In this document: piece after piece, positions 15,201 through 22,310 of the stretch | Position numbering within the stretch: position 1 is the first letter of the stretch | Layout of the letters: the number at the start of each line of letters is the position of its first letter | Assembly (NCBI GenBank): GCA_013239625.1 | Contig: MU057344.1 | Location: 1,118,276 to 1,182,275 of the forward strand | Length of the DNA stretch: 64,000 bases | Direction: 5' to 3' | Origin: Lama guanicoe | Taxonomy: Eukaryota | Program-made: the position numbers and the translations under genes | Notes under the pieces: model-generated | Database searches by the model: none | Told to the model about the DNA's origin: nothing | The model's input: only the letters and a program-made list of their open reading frames with translations

Positions 15201-18200
15201 CGCCGCACTGCAACGCTGCCTCCCTCCTCCTCCTGGGCCCGGGCCCCCGTCCAGTGGATGGGGTAGAGGCAGGGGAGGGATCTCCACCCTGGAGAGTCAG
15301 TGGGGGGCTCACCCCTCCCCACTCAGCCTCACACCCTGGCCCTCTAGGTGTCTTCAACCCCAACTCTGAGGACCCCCTGCCGGGGCAGCTCAAAAAGCAG
15401 CTGGTGCTTCGCATCATCAGTGGGCAGCAGCTCCCCAAGCCACGGGACTCCATGCTGGGGGACCGAGGGGAGGTAGCGGGGCCTGGGCACACACAGGGAG
15501 GGGGCTGGGGAAACTGCCGGGCCCTGGTGCCACTCTCGCTCTCTGTGGCAGATCATCGACCCCTTCGTGGAGGTGGAGGTCATTGGGCTCCCCGTGGACT
15601 GCAGCAAGGAGCAGACCCGCGTGGTGGACGACAATGGTGAGGGTCCTGGCCCAGGCAGGCTGCAGGGGGCTATGGGCACCCAGGTGCCAGCCTGTGCCCC
15701 CAGCGCCATCACAGCTCCTGTGCTGGTGCTGCTAGTCAGCTGGGAAGGGAAGGGTGAGGGCCCCCTCCTGTGACCCAGGTAACCGGCCAGCCTGCCCCTC
15801 GCCCCGACTGGAAGCCCAGTGATGGCCGCCCGGCCTTTAGGTGTTGCTTGCTTCTCTCTGCCGGGTGGCCAGCCCAGGAGGAGGCTCTGGGAGAGGGCAT
15901 GGGCCCAGCTGGCCTCCCGGCTGGAGCTGTGGTGGGGACAGGCCCATCTGTGAGGTGGCACTGGGGCAAGAGGTGACACTTCCTCCTGGTGATCTCCAGG
16001 ATTCAACCCCATGTGGGAAGAGACCCTGGTGTTCACGGTGCACATGCCCGAGATAGCGCTGGTGCGCTTCCTCGTCTGGGACCATGACCCCATTGGGCGT
16101 GACTTCATCGGCCAAAGGACGCTGGCCTTCAGCAGCATGATGCCAGGTGGGCAGGGGGCCACCGTGGGAGCGGTTGGGGAGGGCAGAGCCCTGGGTCAGC
16201 ATCCCCTGCAGGCCAGCAGAAGGCTCCAGCACAGGGCAGGGCTCAGCCTCCTCCAGCGAGTTGACTCCTACCACGGGTGGACATGGGGACACGGAGGGAG
16301 CAGAGGAGGAGGGTGCAAGACCACAGCACTCCATAGACAGGGTGGGGGAGGGGAGACCCAGCTGCGGAGTCCCCCGGTCTCCAGGAAGAGGAAGAGATCC
16401 CTGCAGGCCACAGCAGTACCAGCAGGCTTCCTGGAGGAGGCAGAGGCCCCAGGACTGGACTCACAGGTTGTATTCAGGGCCTTAGGAACTTTAAGTAGAG
16501 TGTGGGGGACATGGGCAGGTAGGAGCTGGGGTGAGCTGTGACCCAGACTGTTTCAGGCTATCGGCATGTGTACCTGGAGGGGATGGAAGAGGCCTCCATC
16601 TTTGTTCACGTGGCCGTCAGTGACATCAGTGGTAAGGTGAGTGCCACCTGCAGGGCCACTTGCTGCCCAGAAGGGGCGCACCAGCGCCAGCCCCAGCCCC
16701 ACCCGATCCACGCCCCCAGGGCCATGAGGTCTAGCGGTCCCCTCGCTGGGACTGTGTCTCCACCTGCGAAATGAGTGGCTGGGCCCCTGGCACACCTCTG
16801 CCAGCCCTGACCACGTCCTGGGGCCACTGTGGCCATCGGGAGATGGACACCACAGCCCTTCCTGGGCACCCCCTGCCCGCCTTCCATCTCTCCTGGGCCT
16901 TCCCTTCTACTTCTCAGGGTCCCCAGGTTCTCCATCCCTCCTCGAAGGCGTCTGGCTTTGCCCCAGATCCCCACCGGTCCCCAGCAGTTTACCCAGGATG
17001 GGGGTCTCGCTCCAGCTTCCCCAGTCTGCAGAGCCCATGGGTCCTGGGTTCTGTGCTCAGGGCCCAGCAGGGCCATAATACATGGTGGTCTGTCAGGCAC
17101 ACGTTGGGGTCCTCGCAGGCCTAGCACTAACCGTCTCTCTCCTGCCTTGCTCCTTGGCCCCGAGGCTGGCTGGACGTGGGCCCCCAGGCCTCCCAACTCT
17201 GCCGTGCATCTGTCGTCCGTCCTGTCTGTCCTGTCTCCGTCTCTGCGGCTCCGTGCCCGCTGTCGGTGTCTCACGGCCTCACTCTGTCTCTTTGGTCTTG
17301 CAGTGGGCTTCTCTATGTCCAAAGTCTACTTTTAGAAGCACAGCCCTGTTAGGAGCTTGAAGGTACCCCAGCACCGGGGTGCGCGGCCTGCCGTCCCCAC
17401 TGCATGCTCAGGCCGCCCCCTTAGCATCTGTGACTCCTGGTAGCACCTTGGAGACTGTCAGCTCATGTGACATGGGTTGGAACGTGATTCTGGGTCCCCT
17501 GGGCCATCCTCAGGCACAGAGCAGCATTTATGAGGCAGGTCCAGGACTTCAGCCAGGCCTCCTGCATGTCCTGCCCAAGGTCTGGCCCGTCTCCTCCGGC
17601 CCCTTGGTCTTTCCAACTCCCGTACCTCCTCCCTGCCCTGTCCTTCCCTATGTCCGGGCCCCTAGCTGCCGGCACCCTATTCCCTCTCCCCTCCCTTCTC
17701 TCTGTGCACCCCCACCTGTGTGCCCCTCTGACTCTGTCTGTGCCAAGGGGTGAGGGGGAGGTCCCAGGGACCAGGAGCTCCGAGCTTGAATTCTGGACCT
17801 TCTTCTAAATGACTTTCCAGCCGACTTTGACCAAATTGCTCTGGATTTGGGATCTTGAATCGGGCAGCTGATTCAAGTGCTGGCCACTACCGCCTCTGCG
17901 TAGAGGTGCCTCTGTGTCCCTGGGGAGCCATGGCTGTTTTTAGGGTCTCTGCATGTGAGGACCCTGCTGGCCTCTCTGGGGTTGACCCAGGCCGGTCATG
18001 GGGGCCCCTGGCTACCCTCTTTGGGCAGGGAGGCCGCAGGGAGAGGCCTTGCGCAGACCTCCTGGGCCTGGCTGTCCGGGAAGGCCCTGGGCGAGCAGTG
18101 GTTTGGGGGCACCAAGCCAGCGGGGGCCCTGCTCTTGAGGCCCCCTGACCAGAGTGCAGGGTGAGGCTGGGAAAAACTGCCTGGCAGGAATCCAGAAGGG

Positions 18201-21200
18201 CTTCCTGGAAGAGGCAGCCTCTCCAGGGGAATGGGCCAGGCAGGAGCATGGGCTAGCCGACCGCGGTCTGCACCTGGCTGTGCTTGCTTCCTCGGCCGCG
18301 GTGCCTGAGGCCGGGGGAACCTGACTGGTGCTTGCTCTGTCCGGTCCTCGGCCGTCCTCCCCTCCACACCAGTGCCTGGGCCAGCCTGCTCTGCCAGAGC
18401 TGGCCGCTGAGGGCTAGGGTCGAGGTCCTTGCTTGGGCCTGCCCCATCCAGCCCTCCCTGGCACACCTGCTCCGAGACCTGCAGCCCTCCCGCCAGCGCC
18501 CGCTGGCTCCCTGCCGCAGCAGCCGCTGTCCCTGGTAGAGCTGCCATGGGGACCCTCTCCCTTCTGCACAGCCCTGAGTGGCCCCAGCCTGATGCAGCCG
18601 CCGGTGCCCTCAGCAAGCTGGCCCCTCGGGCTGCAGCAGGCCCAACCCAGGCCGCTCCCTGCTGGAGCGTGGCTGGACTGGGCTGGGCGGTCCCCGGCCC
18701 CGCTGCCCGGCCGTCCGCTATGTGTCTCCTTCTCTTGCAGGTCAAGCAGGCTCTGGGCCTAAAAGGCCTGTTCCTCCGAGGCCCAAAGCCCGGCTCCCTG
18801 GACAGTCATGCTGCTGGGCGGCCCCCGCCCCGGCCCTCCGTTAGCCAGCGGCTCCTGCGGCGCACAGCCAGCGCCCCAACCAAGAGTCAGAAGCCAGGCC
18901 GCAAGGCCTTCCCAGAGCTGGTCCTGGGCATGCGGGACGTGGGCTACGAGGGGGAGGCCGGCGACAGGGCACCCTCCAGCCCCGGCCCTGCTCCCGAGGC
19001 CCCGGCCCGGGAGGAGCCCGGCCGCCGCAGCCCCCGAGGTAAGGCGCCAGCGGAGAGGAGCCCGGTGCAGGAACAGCCCCCGCGTGCGCCCGAGGGCCCT
19101 GGGCCTGCGGGGATGGCCGCCACCTGCATGAAGTGTGTGGTGGGCTCCTGCGCTGGTGAGGACGCCGAGGGCCTGCGGAGGGGGCGGCTGCCCAGCCCGG
19201 GGCCCGAGGGCGGGCAGGTGGCTATCAGCCAGCAGCCCCGTGCCACCTGGGCGGACTCGCTGGGGGCCCCCCGAGCCGCCCCTGGAAGAAGCAAAGGGGC
19301 CCCCAAAGGCCCCAGGGCCCAGCAGCGGGGCCTGGGCAGCAGCGACTCCGTGTCCTCGGACTCCAGCAGCCCGGGCAGCCCTGAGGGGGCCCCCTGCAGG
19401 CCTGAGGACGCCCACAGGCAGGCGGGGGCCCTGCAGAGGGAGATGAATGCCCTGTTCGTTCAAAGGCTGGAGGAGATTAGGAGTAAATCCCCCGTGTTCC
19501 CCACCGGTAAGCCCAGACGCTCCTCTGCAGCGCCCCGTGCTGGCCCCACCGCCCTCGCATGGCCTGGGCCAGGAGTCCCCGCTGCGCTTTGTGTCCGGAC
19601 CATCGCCTCCATGTGCTCTCTGTGCCTTCGTTCCCTTTGCTCCACTGGCTGGTCCCGTGGGCCCCTCATCTGACCCCCAGAGGGGCTGGGGAAGTGAGAG
19701 CAGGTCTGGCCACAGGCGTACTCACCCTGGAGCTTCCCGCCCGGCTTGGGGACTGCGCAGTCTGAGGGCCAGGCTGTGCTTGCTGAGGCCCACAGCCCAG
19801 AGCTGGGCTTCTGGACATGGGCCCCAGTACCTGGGCCGAGTCTCCTTCCCCGGCCTGACCGCTAGGACCCGGGGGCAGCTTCCAGGCCCTCCTCCCACCT
19901 CCTTCAGGGCCAAGCCGCAGGCGTCCCAGCTCCCGGCCAGCACCACGGTCCCCTGGGAAGTCTGGTGTGGGTTCTTGGACAGGGCTCAGAGCCTCAGTGG
20001 GGCCTCAGCTCGCAAAGTGCCGAGGGGAGCAGATCGCATGTGCACTTGGCCCTACGGACTCAGGCCTGCAGGCCCAGAGCAGCTCTGTTCTGGAAGCCCC
20101 ACCCCTTCCCAGCTGGGCGTGACAGAGAATTTGGGGGCCCCCAGAACAGGGAGCGGATCCAGCCTGGGGAGGGCGGGCTGGAAGCTGAGCCCTCTCCCGC
20201 TCTGTCCCTGCACCCGCCCAGCCTTGCCTCTGTCTGTCCCCTGGCCAGCCCCACCCCCACGCTGGCCAGCCCCACCACCACGCTGACCACGCTGTTCTCC
20301 TTTCTGTCCCCACGCTGCCTCCCTAGTTAGGAACTGAGCGCAGCCAAGTGCCAGGTAACGGGGCCCGGCCCCACCGTGTGTCCTGAGCTGCCCCAGCCCC
20401 CTTGTTGGCCGGCCCGGTAGACCCTGCCTGTGGGCACAGGGCCCGTCTCCCTCCTGCATCCCCAGCAGCTGTGGAGCTGGAGGGCAGGGCGGGGGACAGC
20501 TGTGTGGACATGGAGGGGCCTGATGGCTGGGGGGTCCTGTGGGCATAGGAGCCACAGGGACGCCCCCGACACACTCCTCTCTCTCCCCTACAGACACCTG
20601 CCCCTTCTCTGTGCAGAGGTCGGTCTCCTCCCTGTGCAGCCTGGAAACCATTGCCGAGGAGCCAGCCCTGAGTCCTGGCCCACCACCGCTGGTGGCTGCC
20701 GCCCCTAGCCACTCCCCTGGAGGGCCTCAGTGCTCCGCAGGTCCCAGCACCAACTCGGCGAGCCCTCCAGGGCTGGCTCTGGAAACTTCTGGGCCCCTCC
20801 AGCTCAGGACCTGGGGCCACAGGAACCCCGAGCCAGCCCCTGAAAGCAGGCAGTGGGCATGCAGCGGCGGGGGCGCTGGTAGGGCAGGCCAGGGGGCCCC
20901 CAGCAGCCAGACAGACAGCAGGGGCCACCCCCGGACCCATCTGCCCAGAAGGGCCAAGAGTGAGGCGCAGGTGCCCTCAGAGTCCCCGGGTGGGCGGTGG
21001 CCCCTGGCTGGGCCCTGTCCCACCGTGTACTCAGATGCCACAGGCAATGACCGGCTGTGGCAGCGGCTGGAGCCAGGCAGCCACCGTGGCAGCGTGTCTT
21101 CATCCTCTAGCGTGTCATCCAGTGACACGGTCATTGATCTCTCCCTGCCGGGCCTGGGCCCAGGCCGTGAAAGCCTCACAGGGGCCCCAGCAGGACGTCT

Positions 21201-21867
21201 CCCCCTGCGGACCTGCTCAGCCTCAGCCGCCCACTTGGACCTGCCCACTGTGACCAAAAGCAAATCCAACCCCAACCTGCGGGCTGCGGGCCAGCTGCCT
21301 GTGGCGCCCGGAGAGCTACAGTCCCGCCCCCTAGCTCCTAGGCTGCCCTGGGGCCGCCTCCCCTTGGTGGGCCTCTGGGACTGCACTGTGGCTGCCAAGT
21401 CCAAGAGCCTCGGGGACCTGACCGCCGATGACTTTGTCCCCCGTGTGGAGAGCCTGGGCTGCAGCCTGGGCCTGGCCAGGGAGAGGCCAGCAGGGCCGAG
21501 TGCACGGCCGGACACCCTGACGGAGCAGCTACGCTGGCTCACAGGGTTCCAGCAGGCCGGTGACATCACGTCGCCCACCAGCCTGGGCCCAGCTGGGGAG
21601 GGGGTGGCAGGAGGCCAAGGCTTCCTGCGACGCTCCTCTTCCCGCAGCCAGAGCCGCGTCCGTGCCATTGCCAGCCGGGCCCGCCAGGCCCAGGAGCGGC
21701 AGCAGCGGCTGCAGGGCCCGAGGGGACCCCCGGAGGAGGAGCGGGGCACCCCTGAGGGTGCCTGCTCCGTGGGCCAAGAGGGCTGCGGGGATGTGCTGGC
21801 CCCCACCAAGGGTGCCGCTGACCGGCCATCAGGTGCTGCCGTCCCCAGCCTCCTGCTCAGACTCTGA
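34..21867 (+). CDS. PLCH2: Phospholipase C eta 2, spliced multi-exon CDS span, 5'-partial (first exons lie upstream of the window)
   Basis: Exons join in phase to give PH (part), EF-hands, X box (SSHNTY, IVHHG catalytic His motifs), X-Y linker, Y box, C2 and a long C-tail ending in the PDZ-ligand LLRL. Sequence closely matches recalled mammalian PLCH2. Confidence 0.97.
278..444 (+). other. PLCH2: U12-type (minor spliceosome) intron with AT-AA termini, 167 nt
   Basis: 5' site ATATCCTT; U12-like branch CCCCTAAC 426-433; frame requires the join CA|G TGG CTG AAG (QWLK), so the intron ends ...CAAA at 444. Confidence 0.85.
445..574 (+). CDS. PLCH2: PLCH2 exon (EF-hand, [17 protein letters not shown]...KQMFK), 130 nt
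   Basis: EF-hand loop [12 protein letters not shown]; donor GTGAGG at 575. Confidence 0.94.
1727..2033 (+). mobile_element. tRNA-derived SINE (camelid Vic-1-like) followed by an old L1 3'-end fragment, within one target-site duplication
   Basis: A box TAGCTCAGCGG, degenerate B box, AAACCTAGTTACC tail; TSD GAACATGCCCCC 1715-1726 and GAAAATGCCCCC 2034-2045. Confidence 0.8.
3513..3683 (+). CDS. PLCH2: PLCH2 exon (EADTDDQQG...LEVEQK), 171 nt
   Basis: AG 3511-3512 and GT 3684; phase 0-0; EF-hand region. Confidence 0.95.
5638..5731 (+). CDS. PLCH2: PLCH2 exon (MTGVTLESC...MGID), 94 nt
   Basis: TAG acceptor, GTGAGT donor, phase consistent. Confidence 0.94.
5901..6104 (+). CDS. PLCH2: PLCH2 exon (GFTNYTRSP...SSHNTYL...GCRCVE), start of X box, 204 nt
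   Basis: PI-PLC motif [19 protein letters not shown]; canonical AG/GT. Confidence 0.96.
6353..6473 (+). CDS. PLCH2: PLCH2 exon ([16 protein letters not shown]...FVKNE), 121 nt
   Basis: X-box DCWDG and HHG motifs read directly from DNA; AG 6351-6352, GT 6474. Confidence 0.95.
7890..8061 (+). CDS. PLCH2: PLCH2 exon ([11 protein letters not shown]...LKGKILVK), 172 nt
   Basis: X-box motifs; AG/GT boundaries in phase. Confidence 0.96.
8415..8522 (+). CDS. PLCH2: PLCH2 exon ([15 protein letters not shown]...LLDGD), 108 nt
   Basis: Acidic X-Y linker; AG/GT, phase 0-0. Confidence 0.94.
9547..9705 (+). CDS. PLCH2: PLCH2 exon ([10 protein letters not shown]...GHRAEAKK), 159 nt
   Basis: CTGCAG acceptor; AAG|GTGAGA donor; phase 0-0. 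Confidence 0.9.
11686..11776 (+). mobile_element. 5'-truncated tRNA-derived SINE
   Basis: B box GGTTCAATAC, A-rich tail, TSD AAGCAGGTGG at 11676-11685 and 11777-11786. Confidence 0.8.
13265..13351 (+). CDS. PLCH2: PLCH2 exon ([10 protein letters not shown]...FSKRK), 87 nt
   Basis: Polypyrimidine tract plus CAG; GT 13352; phase 0-0. Confidence 0.9.
13750..13832 (+). CDS. PLCH2: PLCH2 exon ([15 protein letters not shown]...QSRG), 83 nt
   Basis: CAG 13747-13749; GTCAGT donor at 13833. Confidence 0.9.
14200..14297 (+). CDS. PLCH2: PLCH2 exon ([20 protein letters not shown]...ETE), start of Y box, 98 nt
   Basis: LSDLV motif; AG/GT in phase. Confidence 0.95.
14384..14566 (+). CDS. PLCH2: PLCH2 exon ([12 protein letters not shown]...RIYP...WNAGCQM), 183 nt
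   Basis: Y-box motifs [17 protein letters not shown]. Confidence 0.97.
14766..14873 (+). CDS. PLCH2: PLCH2 exon (VALNYQSEG...[11 protein letters not shown]), 108 nt
   Basis: Y-box VALNYQ and GYVLKP motifs; AG/GT. Confidence 0.96.
15348..15472 (+). CDS. PLCH2: PLCH2 exon ([10 protein letters not shown]...IISGQQLPK...DRGE), start of C2, 125 nt
   Basis: C2 motif IISGQQLP; TAG/GT. Confidence 0.95.
15552..15636 (+). CDS. PLCH2: PLCH2 exon ([12 protein letters not shown]...VVDDN), 85 nt
   Basis: C2 motif DPFVEV; AG/GT. Confidence 0.95.
16000..16146 (+). CDS. PLCH2: PLCH2 exon ([10 protein letters not shown]...FSSMMP), 147 nt
   Basis: C2 motifs GFNPxW and DFIGQ; AG/GT. Confidence 0.96.
16557..16636 (+). 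CDS. PLCH2: PLCH2 exon (GYRHVYLEG...DISGK), end of C2, 80 nt
   Basis: GYRHV motif; AAG|GTGAGT donor, phase 0. Confidence 0.95.
17304..17362 (+). other. PLCH2: Candidate stop-containing cassette exon in PLCH2 ([18 protein letters not shown]), 59 nt
   Basis: Long AG-free pyrimidine-rich tract ending TTGCAG; AAG|GTACCC donor; TGCATG motifs downstream; see findings. Confidence 0.55.
18741..19038 (+). CDS. PLCH2: PLCH2 exon, short-donor form ([11 protein letters not shown]...RRSPR), 298 nt
   Basis: TTGCAG acceptor; strong donor G|GTAAGG at 19039; phase 1 fits the final exon. Confidence 0.93.
19039..19506 (+). CDS. PLCH2: PLCH2 alternative 3' extension of the same exon (long-donor form, ...[25 protein letters not shown])
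   Basis: Frame stays open; second donor G|GTAAGC at 19507 in the same phase 1; C-terminal splice variants of PLC-eta2 are established. Confidence 0.8.
20327..20354 (+). CDS. PLCH2: PLCH2 alternative 28-nt microexon encoding V-R-N-stop (TGA 20335-20337)
   Basis: Branch-like GCTGAC, polypyrimidine tract, TAG acceptor, CAG|GTAACG donor; matches a recalled short PLC-eta2 C-terminus. Confidence 0.75.
20594..21867 (+). CDS. PLCH2: PLCH2 last coding exon (DTCPFSVQR...KSKSLGDLT...LLLRL*)
   Basis: CAG 20591-20593; PLCH motifs [23 protein letters not shown]; PDZ-ligand end. Confidence 0.95.
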
Positions 21868-22310
21868 GCAGACCCGGGGAACTTGTGTGCCCTCCCTGCA
21901 GCCCGGCGCCTGGGCAGGCCGGTGTTTGCGCAGGACACAGCTGCTCGCTCCCAAAGCCACCGCCTGTCCTGGTGCGGCTGTGCCCCTGGGCCCCCAGCCC
22001 CACCTCCCGAGGAGGAAGGGAGCCCGCCCTGGGCTTTAAGATCTGTGTATACAGAGAGAGATACTTAACTTTTAGAGACAAAACTTCTACAACACAAAAA
22101 CGGTGCCGTGTCCTTCTCCACTTCCACCTGGTTTTAGCTGCGAGGGTGTGTGCCGGCGCGCGTCTGCTGGCCCTGCCACGCGAGGCCCCTGGGGATGCTT
22201 GTCGTGTGCCCAGGGTGATCCAGAACGTTGCCTGTGCCCCCACCCGGACTGCAGCTTGTTCTGCACAAACCCTGCTCTGTACGGGATGTTTTAGACTCTT
22301 CGTAAACTCC

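Follow-up and report, generated by a model that had tools for sequence, protein, structure and literature searches.

PLC-eta2, the product of PLCH2, is a neuronal calcium-signalling enzyme, and its C-terminal tail sets it apart from PLC-delta. An earlier note on the PLCH2 locus of Lama guanicoe proposed that a short stop-containing exon, with a coding exon of PLCH1 as its paralog, is hidden at the junction between the enzyme core and this tail. An unannotated switch at that site could set the amount of PLC-eta2 or remove its tail. This raises the questions of whether the element is an exon, how it is related to PLCH1 and what its inclusion would do. The window, that is the whole stretch of 64,000 nucleotides of L. 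guanicoe DNA analysed here, contains the 3' portion of PLCH2, which is encoded on the plus strand and the tail of which matches a Vicugna protein with 98% identity and Camelus proteins with 97%.

An exon-like element between the C2 and tail exons of PLCH2

The last C2-domain exon of PLCH2 (16557-16636) ends in DISGK in phase 0 at the donor AAG/GTGAGT, where the slash marks the exon boundary. An alternative donor, GTG/GTAAGG (16632-16637, boundary 16631/16632), lies 5 nt 5' of this main donor. The C-tail exon (18741-19506) also starts in phase 0. Donors are present within and at the end of the tail exon (19039 and 19507), and a frame that stays open on read-through extends from 18741 to 19670; both agree with the varied C-termini among the database isoforms.

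Between these exons, on the same strand, lies an exon-like element of 59 nt in phase 0 (17304-17362). It is preceded by an AG-free, pyrimidine-rich tract of 114 nt (17188-17301) with branch-point-like 5-mers at 17270 and 17278 and by an acceptor region (17280-17303) that ends in TTGCAG, and it is followed by the donor AAG/GTACCC (17363-17368). In phase 0 it encodes 18 residues and then a TGA codon (17358-17360). The AG-free tract, the acceptor, the donor and the reading with its stop are placed as the earlier note described them, and the splice-site features sought in a poison exon, an AG and a GT, a pyrimidine tract and a branch-point candidate, are all present. The donor is weak and agrees with the consensus at 5/9 positions, as compared to 7/9 in the neighbouring main donors. 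As had also been remarked, the sequence AG/GTACCC recurs at two minus-strand sites (34608 and 26184) behind PANK4-like reading frames, which we take to be PANK4. The GC content of the element is 0.46 versus 0.66 in both flanking introns, and a genome search identified a single copy of it in its own genome. No AG-free run in the window is longer than this tract, N stretches excepted. Runs of at least 114 nt were obtained in 97 of 2,000 local Markov resamples of the two pyrimidine-rich introns (P about 0.05), and the run alone is only suggestive of an exon.

The motif CACTAAC is located at 17125-17131, as reported, and had been interpreted as a branch point or a QKI-type site. It is unlikely to be the branch point of the element acceptor, since it lies outside the AG-free run and two AGs (17163 and 17186) intervene before the acceptor; a QKI-type site or a decoy appears more likely. 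In the segment 17125-17187 the motif is followed by a pyrimidine tract of its own and by these two AGs, which could represent a decoy or an alternative acceptor, and the translation around it (LTVSLL) recurs in several homologues.

The downstream intron of 1,378 nt contains three TGCATG motifs on the plus strand versus 0.28 expected (P about 0.002), while the upstream intron contains none. The three copies are found where the earlier note had listed them. The first (17401-17406) is placed 38 nt past the donor and starts a conserved intron block (17400-17520), the second (17563-17568) is apparently lost in the homologue P0196, which has Val in place of Met, and the third is at 17950-17955. RBFOX sites located up to about 200 nt downstream are described as promoting exon inclusion (PMC13542418). 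A conserved (U)GCAUG at this distance, as looked for in an RBFOX-activated exon, is present at 17401. Together, the weak donor, the long pyrimidine tract and the downstream (U)GCAUG fit a pattern of default skipping with RBFOX-promoted inclusion (PMC13542418).

Folding of 17250-17450 and 17780-17890 gave z-scores of -0.5 and -1.5, on which no claim of RNA structure is made, and a search of 16640-18740 against Rfam gave two matches, both far below threshold. A segment of the downstream intron at about 17788-17870 matches the end of the rat-like homologue P0224; its two small hairpins (z -1.5) correspond to no family in Rfam. Metagenome contigs scanned for exact patterns gave zero loci.

Relationship to the 60-nt exon of PLCH1

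A search of the same genome with the C2 exon identified a second locus with 88% identity, which is taken as PLCH1. This locus contains a separate exon of 60 nt (L008:2127-2186) in phase 0, which encodes WSPLILNPSYTILHFLGATK, is bounded as TTGCAG, 60 nt and GTAGTC, and is separated by 1,533 nt from the last C2 exon upstream and by 434 nt from the tail exon downstream. The PLCH1 segment of 20 amino acids that the earlier note had described is found at the same junction. Both the PLCH1 exon and the PLCH2 element start with CTTGCAG/TGG, have the block TAGGAGCT near their ends and finish with AAG/GTA. The residues W1, L4 and L16-G17-A18 are in register, and 5/18 residues and 26/54 nucleotides are identical. 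Among the 128 AG sites in the intron, the element scores highest against the PLCH1 20-mer (BLOSUM62 score of 22, with 2 for the runner-up). Scores of at least 22 are reached by 2 of 10,033 AG sites in the window, of which the element is the second and an unrelated site, with a score of 26, the first. In anchored DNA identity to the PLCH1 exon (33/64), the element ranks at the top of 10,024 sites. The shared junction, phase and residue register identify the element as the PLCH2 counterpart of an exon of 20 codons still encoded by PLCH1, as judged from the sequences of the two loci. The PLCH1 intron past the 60-nt exon (L008:2187-2620) contains GCATG at 2196, 2246 and 2449, that is three copies in 434 nt versus 0.46 expected, which suggests that the paralogous exon may be regulated in the same way.

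A profile search against 1.84 billion representatives yielded 23 matches: 14 of PLCH1 type, 7 of PLCH2 type and 2 (P0237 and P0239) that were excluded as repetitive chance matches. Among the 14 PLCH1-type 20-mers, ten are identical and the other four have conservative changes; in 13 the next residue is Val, as is needed for a GT donor. No PLCH2-type copy could be placed outside the mammals among the 23 matches of this search, which sees called open reading frames only. The PLCH1 exon is under strong protein constraint, and the PLCH2 copy is diverged, length-variable and almost unannotated.

Conservation and reading register in other species

Homologous readings of the element were obtained from 35 database sequences, which are frames called on genomic contigs that cross it and, apart from the window, represent about five lineages independent of one another. 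Since they were retrieved by their likeness to the element, the conservation peak is partly built in, contrasts with the surroundings are overstated and decayed copies are missed; the counts of 59 and 60 nt in other species are derived from one-frame translations rather than from DNA.

In 30 of the 35 readings the element ends in G-A-R/Q-R-Y-P, which corresponds to the 59-nt register with a sense codon at the position of the TGA in the window; 29 of these 30 stop-free readings fall within four close clusters. Another four readings, including the rat, end in G-V/I-S-K-V-P, which corresponds to 20 codons followed by GTA, and are 60 nt long and open as in the PLCH1 register. This group includes a named rat protein, the 20-mer of which is also present in P0197 and P0224 (P0197 has no match to a Pfam family). 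The remaining reading stops at G-A like the window, so that the TGA is restricted to the window and, as judged by its end point, P0235. Hence, neither the stop nor the frameshift is conserved across the mammals, since 4/35 readings, including the rat, have the open 60-nt form. Because the position of the TGA is a sense codon in 30/35 readings, the TGA is incidental, and the shortfall of one base is confined to one branch, with 59 nt in this genome as well as in its nearer relatives. The description of the element as one base short and with a stop is consequently accurate for this lineage but not for PLCH2 in general, and a poison reading would be limited to one mammalian branch.

The place and orthology of the element are fixed by P0231 and P0235, whose reading extends from the last C2 exon across all of the upstream intron and into the element. 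In all nine homologues compared, 13-17 of the 18 exon residues are equal to those in the window, versus 30-59% further upstream; the copies P0231 and P0235 have drifted (13/18 and 14/18). In the seven homologues that span the acceptor region, 7/8 or 8/8 translated positions are equal. Relative to the P0193-P0196 clade, which also has the 59-nt form, the window has 8/8 acceptor positions and 17/18 exon residues in common, versus 52-59% upstream. The donor register (R-Y-P or K-V-P) is maintained in 34/34 readings that extend that far, while the next 30 nt are divergent. A TGCATG located 36-40 nt 3' of the donor is compatible with all 34 readings that extend past it, and the T of CAT in the first TGCATG is fixed by a second frame in four of them. 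In the block 17400-17520, 19-33 of about 41 positions are kept in the six homologues that reach it in frame. The splice signals and the flanking intron are thus conserved across species, as seen in translations of homologues whose retrieval favours conserved copies, and the splice sites are kept from this genome to the rat, in line with the earlier expectation of splice-site conservation.

Use of the element in gene models

The use of the element was examined in 325 listed PLCH2 gene models of at least 450 residues that contain the last C2 exon. Among these, 313 skip the element and none joins it at both ends. The rat RefSeq model XP_038967300.1 (isoform X4) splices DISGK onto the element acceptor in phase 0, and then continues through the donor to an end of 77 residues. 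RefSeq models of this kind generally rest on RNA alignments, although this is not specific to the junction. A second rat model, XP_038967301.1, is in the register of the donor located 5 nt 5' of the main C2-exon donor, which gives a frameshifted, tail-less product. In the window, the combination of this upstream GTG/GTAAGG donor with the 59-nt element leads to a TAG at 17333. The felid GenBank model P0020 has its end inside the element, which it reads in the +2 frame (MSKVYF, followed by a stop), and was rejected as evidence of expression, since its junction is resolvable only with the DNA. Nine non-standard models do not contain the element (P0025, P0057, P0065, P0067, P0114, P0127, P0132, P0148 and P0151) and represent neither skipping nor inclusion.

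None of the camelid, ruminant, pig, horse, carnivore, bat, pangolin and human models listed includes the element. For the 59-nt form, an absence from the protein sets is to be expected if the transcripts are degraded by nonsense-mediated decay (NMD). The 59 rodent models listed consist of 57 that skip the element, one that reads through the donor and one that uses the upstream donor. Inclusion in rodents would be in frame and annotatable, yet it is found in 0/59 models, which leaves the donor without direct support and is a real point against frequent use of the element as a cassette.

Predicted outcome of inclusion and alternative explanations

If both splice sites are used in the window, the TGA at 17358 ends translation; in its absence, the frame would remain open up to a TAA 20 nt into the tail exon (18760-18762). 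Stop codons that precede a later junction by more than 50-55 nt are subject to NMD. Either stop lies about 280-300 nt or more 5' of a later junction (donors at 19039 and 19507), so the usual distance rule for NMD holds. A protein ending at the element would have complete PH, EF, X, Y and C2 domains and lack the tail, which accounts for 523 of 1,413 residues in P0117.

We consider the element to be, on present sequence evidence, a real, conserved and nearly unannotated exon that is open in rodents and has a coding exon of PLCH1 as its paralog. Its history is most likely that of an old coding cassette that has turned into a poison exon in a single branch of the mammals. The exon would predate the duplication of PLCH1 and PLCH2; this branch would then have lost a single base, and the TGA could subsequently arise at no cost. 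With its weak donor and pyrimidine tract the exon would be skipped by default, and RBFOX bound at +38 nt may promote its inclusion in neurons or muscle, where degradation of the included form would trim the levels of PLC-eta2. A repression by PTBP through the CU-rich tract is a guess. We modestly favour the reading that the element in this lineage is a regulated poison exon of low inclusion, the inclusion of which would lead to NMD. A broader version, which we put forward tentatively and consider less likely than not, would describe a single exon of vertebrate age that now exists in three states. In PLCH1 it would be a 20-residue insert under constraint, and in rodent PLCH2 either an insert with an open frame or a tail switch that works by read-through. 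In another branch of the mammals it would be an RBFOX-driven poison exon that after the loss of a single base kept its old regulatory circuit, with message decay or a tail-less, PLC-delta-like enzyme in place of a protein variant as its present output.

The poison-exon reading has to be weighed against three others. It is rather unlikely that the element is a fading relic, that is an ancestral coding exon, maybe still coding in rodents, that is effectively never included in the 59-nt branch and is kept by slow decay or by an overlapping regulatory element. The lost frame, the TGA in the window and P0235, the drift in P0231 and P0235 and the lack of an inclusion model among the listed camelid-to-human models are all in agreement with a relic. 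However, the acceptor and exon are kept at 8/8 and 17/18 positions relative to P0193-P0196 while the upstream sequence has fallen to 52-59%, the GC content of 0.46 stands out within an intron of 0.66, and three TGCATG motifs are present; moreover, NMD forms are not expected in protein databases. Least probable by far is that a chance pseudo-exon merely resembles the PLCH1 exon, an idea that is already largely refuted: the same intron, phase and length, the top DNA match of 10,024 sites, the open 60-nt form in the rat and the rat model that uses the acceptor all speak against it, even though identity is low (5/18 residues), an unrelated AG site of the window reaches a score of 26 versus 22 and the AG-free run has a P of about 0.05.

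It is also unlikely that the acceptor is used and the weak donor mostly is not, in which case the element would be an alternative last exon or part of a retained intron, and the product a stable, tail-less PLC-delta-like enzyme. The difference between 59 and 60 nt and the TGA would then hardly matter. This explanation draws on the gene models, since the sole listed model with the phase-0 acceptor, XP_038967300.1, reads 77 residues through the donor and stops, P0020 likewise ends inside the element, though in another frame, and XP_038967301.1 loses the tail via the upstream donor; the tail-less product with its full set of domains is also compatible with it. On the other hand, neither AATAAA nor ATTAAA is present in 16600-22310, so that the canonical polyadenylation signal looked for in an alternative last exon is lacking ahead of 22311. 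The donor register is maintained in 34/34 readings while the following 30 nt diverge, and the read-through models may derive from partly spliced RNA.

Taken together, the earlier interpretation is partly supported, by the paralogy, the conservation of the splice sites and the use of the acceptor in the rat, and fails with respect to the stop as a general feature of PLCH2. If the poison-exon reading is correct, the element would provide a clean case of a poison exon that originated by loss of frame in a regulated coding exon, with the paralog and the rodents as controls. It would also serve as a warning that rodent models may splice PLCH2 unlike other mammals.

Comparison with known systems

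A full-text search of the literature, in which the Greek letter eta could not be matched by name, returned no description of the element exon. The strings PLCH1 and PLCH2 are likewise absent from the NMD and splicing supplements of PMC11188260 (file 13 excluded), PMC8091538, PMC13247117 and PMC10123112, in which tables keyed by gene identifiers would be missed. Zhou and colleagues are said to have described C-terminal splice variants of PLC-eta2 in 2005. An alternate-terminator event in PLCH2 is mentioned in one study (PMC9485890), and an alternative 5' site of PLCH1 in FTLD-TDP in another (PMC12143990). The known PLC-eta2 variants resemble the element in that alternative processing takes place past the C2 domain. 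However, the PLC-eta2 variants in the databases differ inside or after the tail exon, while the element precedes this exon and would remove the whole tail.

The closest counterpart is the 60-nt exon of PLCH1, which has the same junction, phase 0, the TTGCAG/TGG start, the block TAGGAGCT, an AAG/GTA donor with 5/9 consensus positions and GCATG motifs downstream. It differs in that 10/14 readings of it are identical, while the PLCH2 element is diverged and length-variable. A tail-less product would instead be comparable to PLC-delta1 (PDB 1djg). The chain end of PLC-delta1 aligns with residue 862 of P0020, five residues ahead of the junction, so a truncated PLC-eta2 would share its set of domains, and the suggestion of a tail-less, PLC-delta-like core is upheld in that the whole core is kept. 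PLC-delta1 is a normal gene product, however, while the truncated PLC-eta2 is a predicted one.

The neuronal poison exons 20N of SCN1A and 18N of SCN8A (PMC13542418) are also small conserved intronic exons whose inclusion introduces a premature stop far ahead of a later junction. They have been demonstrated with RNA data, while the element is known from its sequence and from gene models. Unlike in these exons, the stop in the element is lineage-restricted, and a coding counterpart is present in the paralog and in rodents. Unproductive splicing, the likely role of the element, is of an already known kind, and it is the lineage-dependent frame that makes this exon worth testing.
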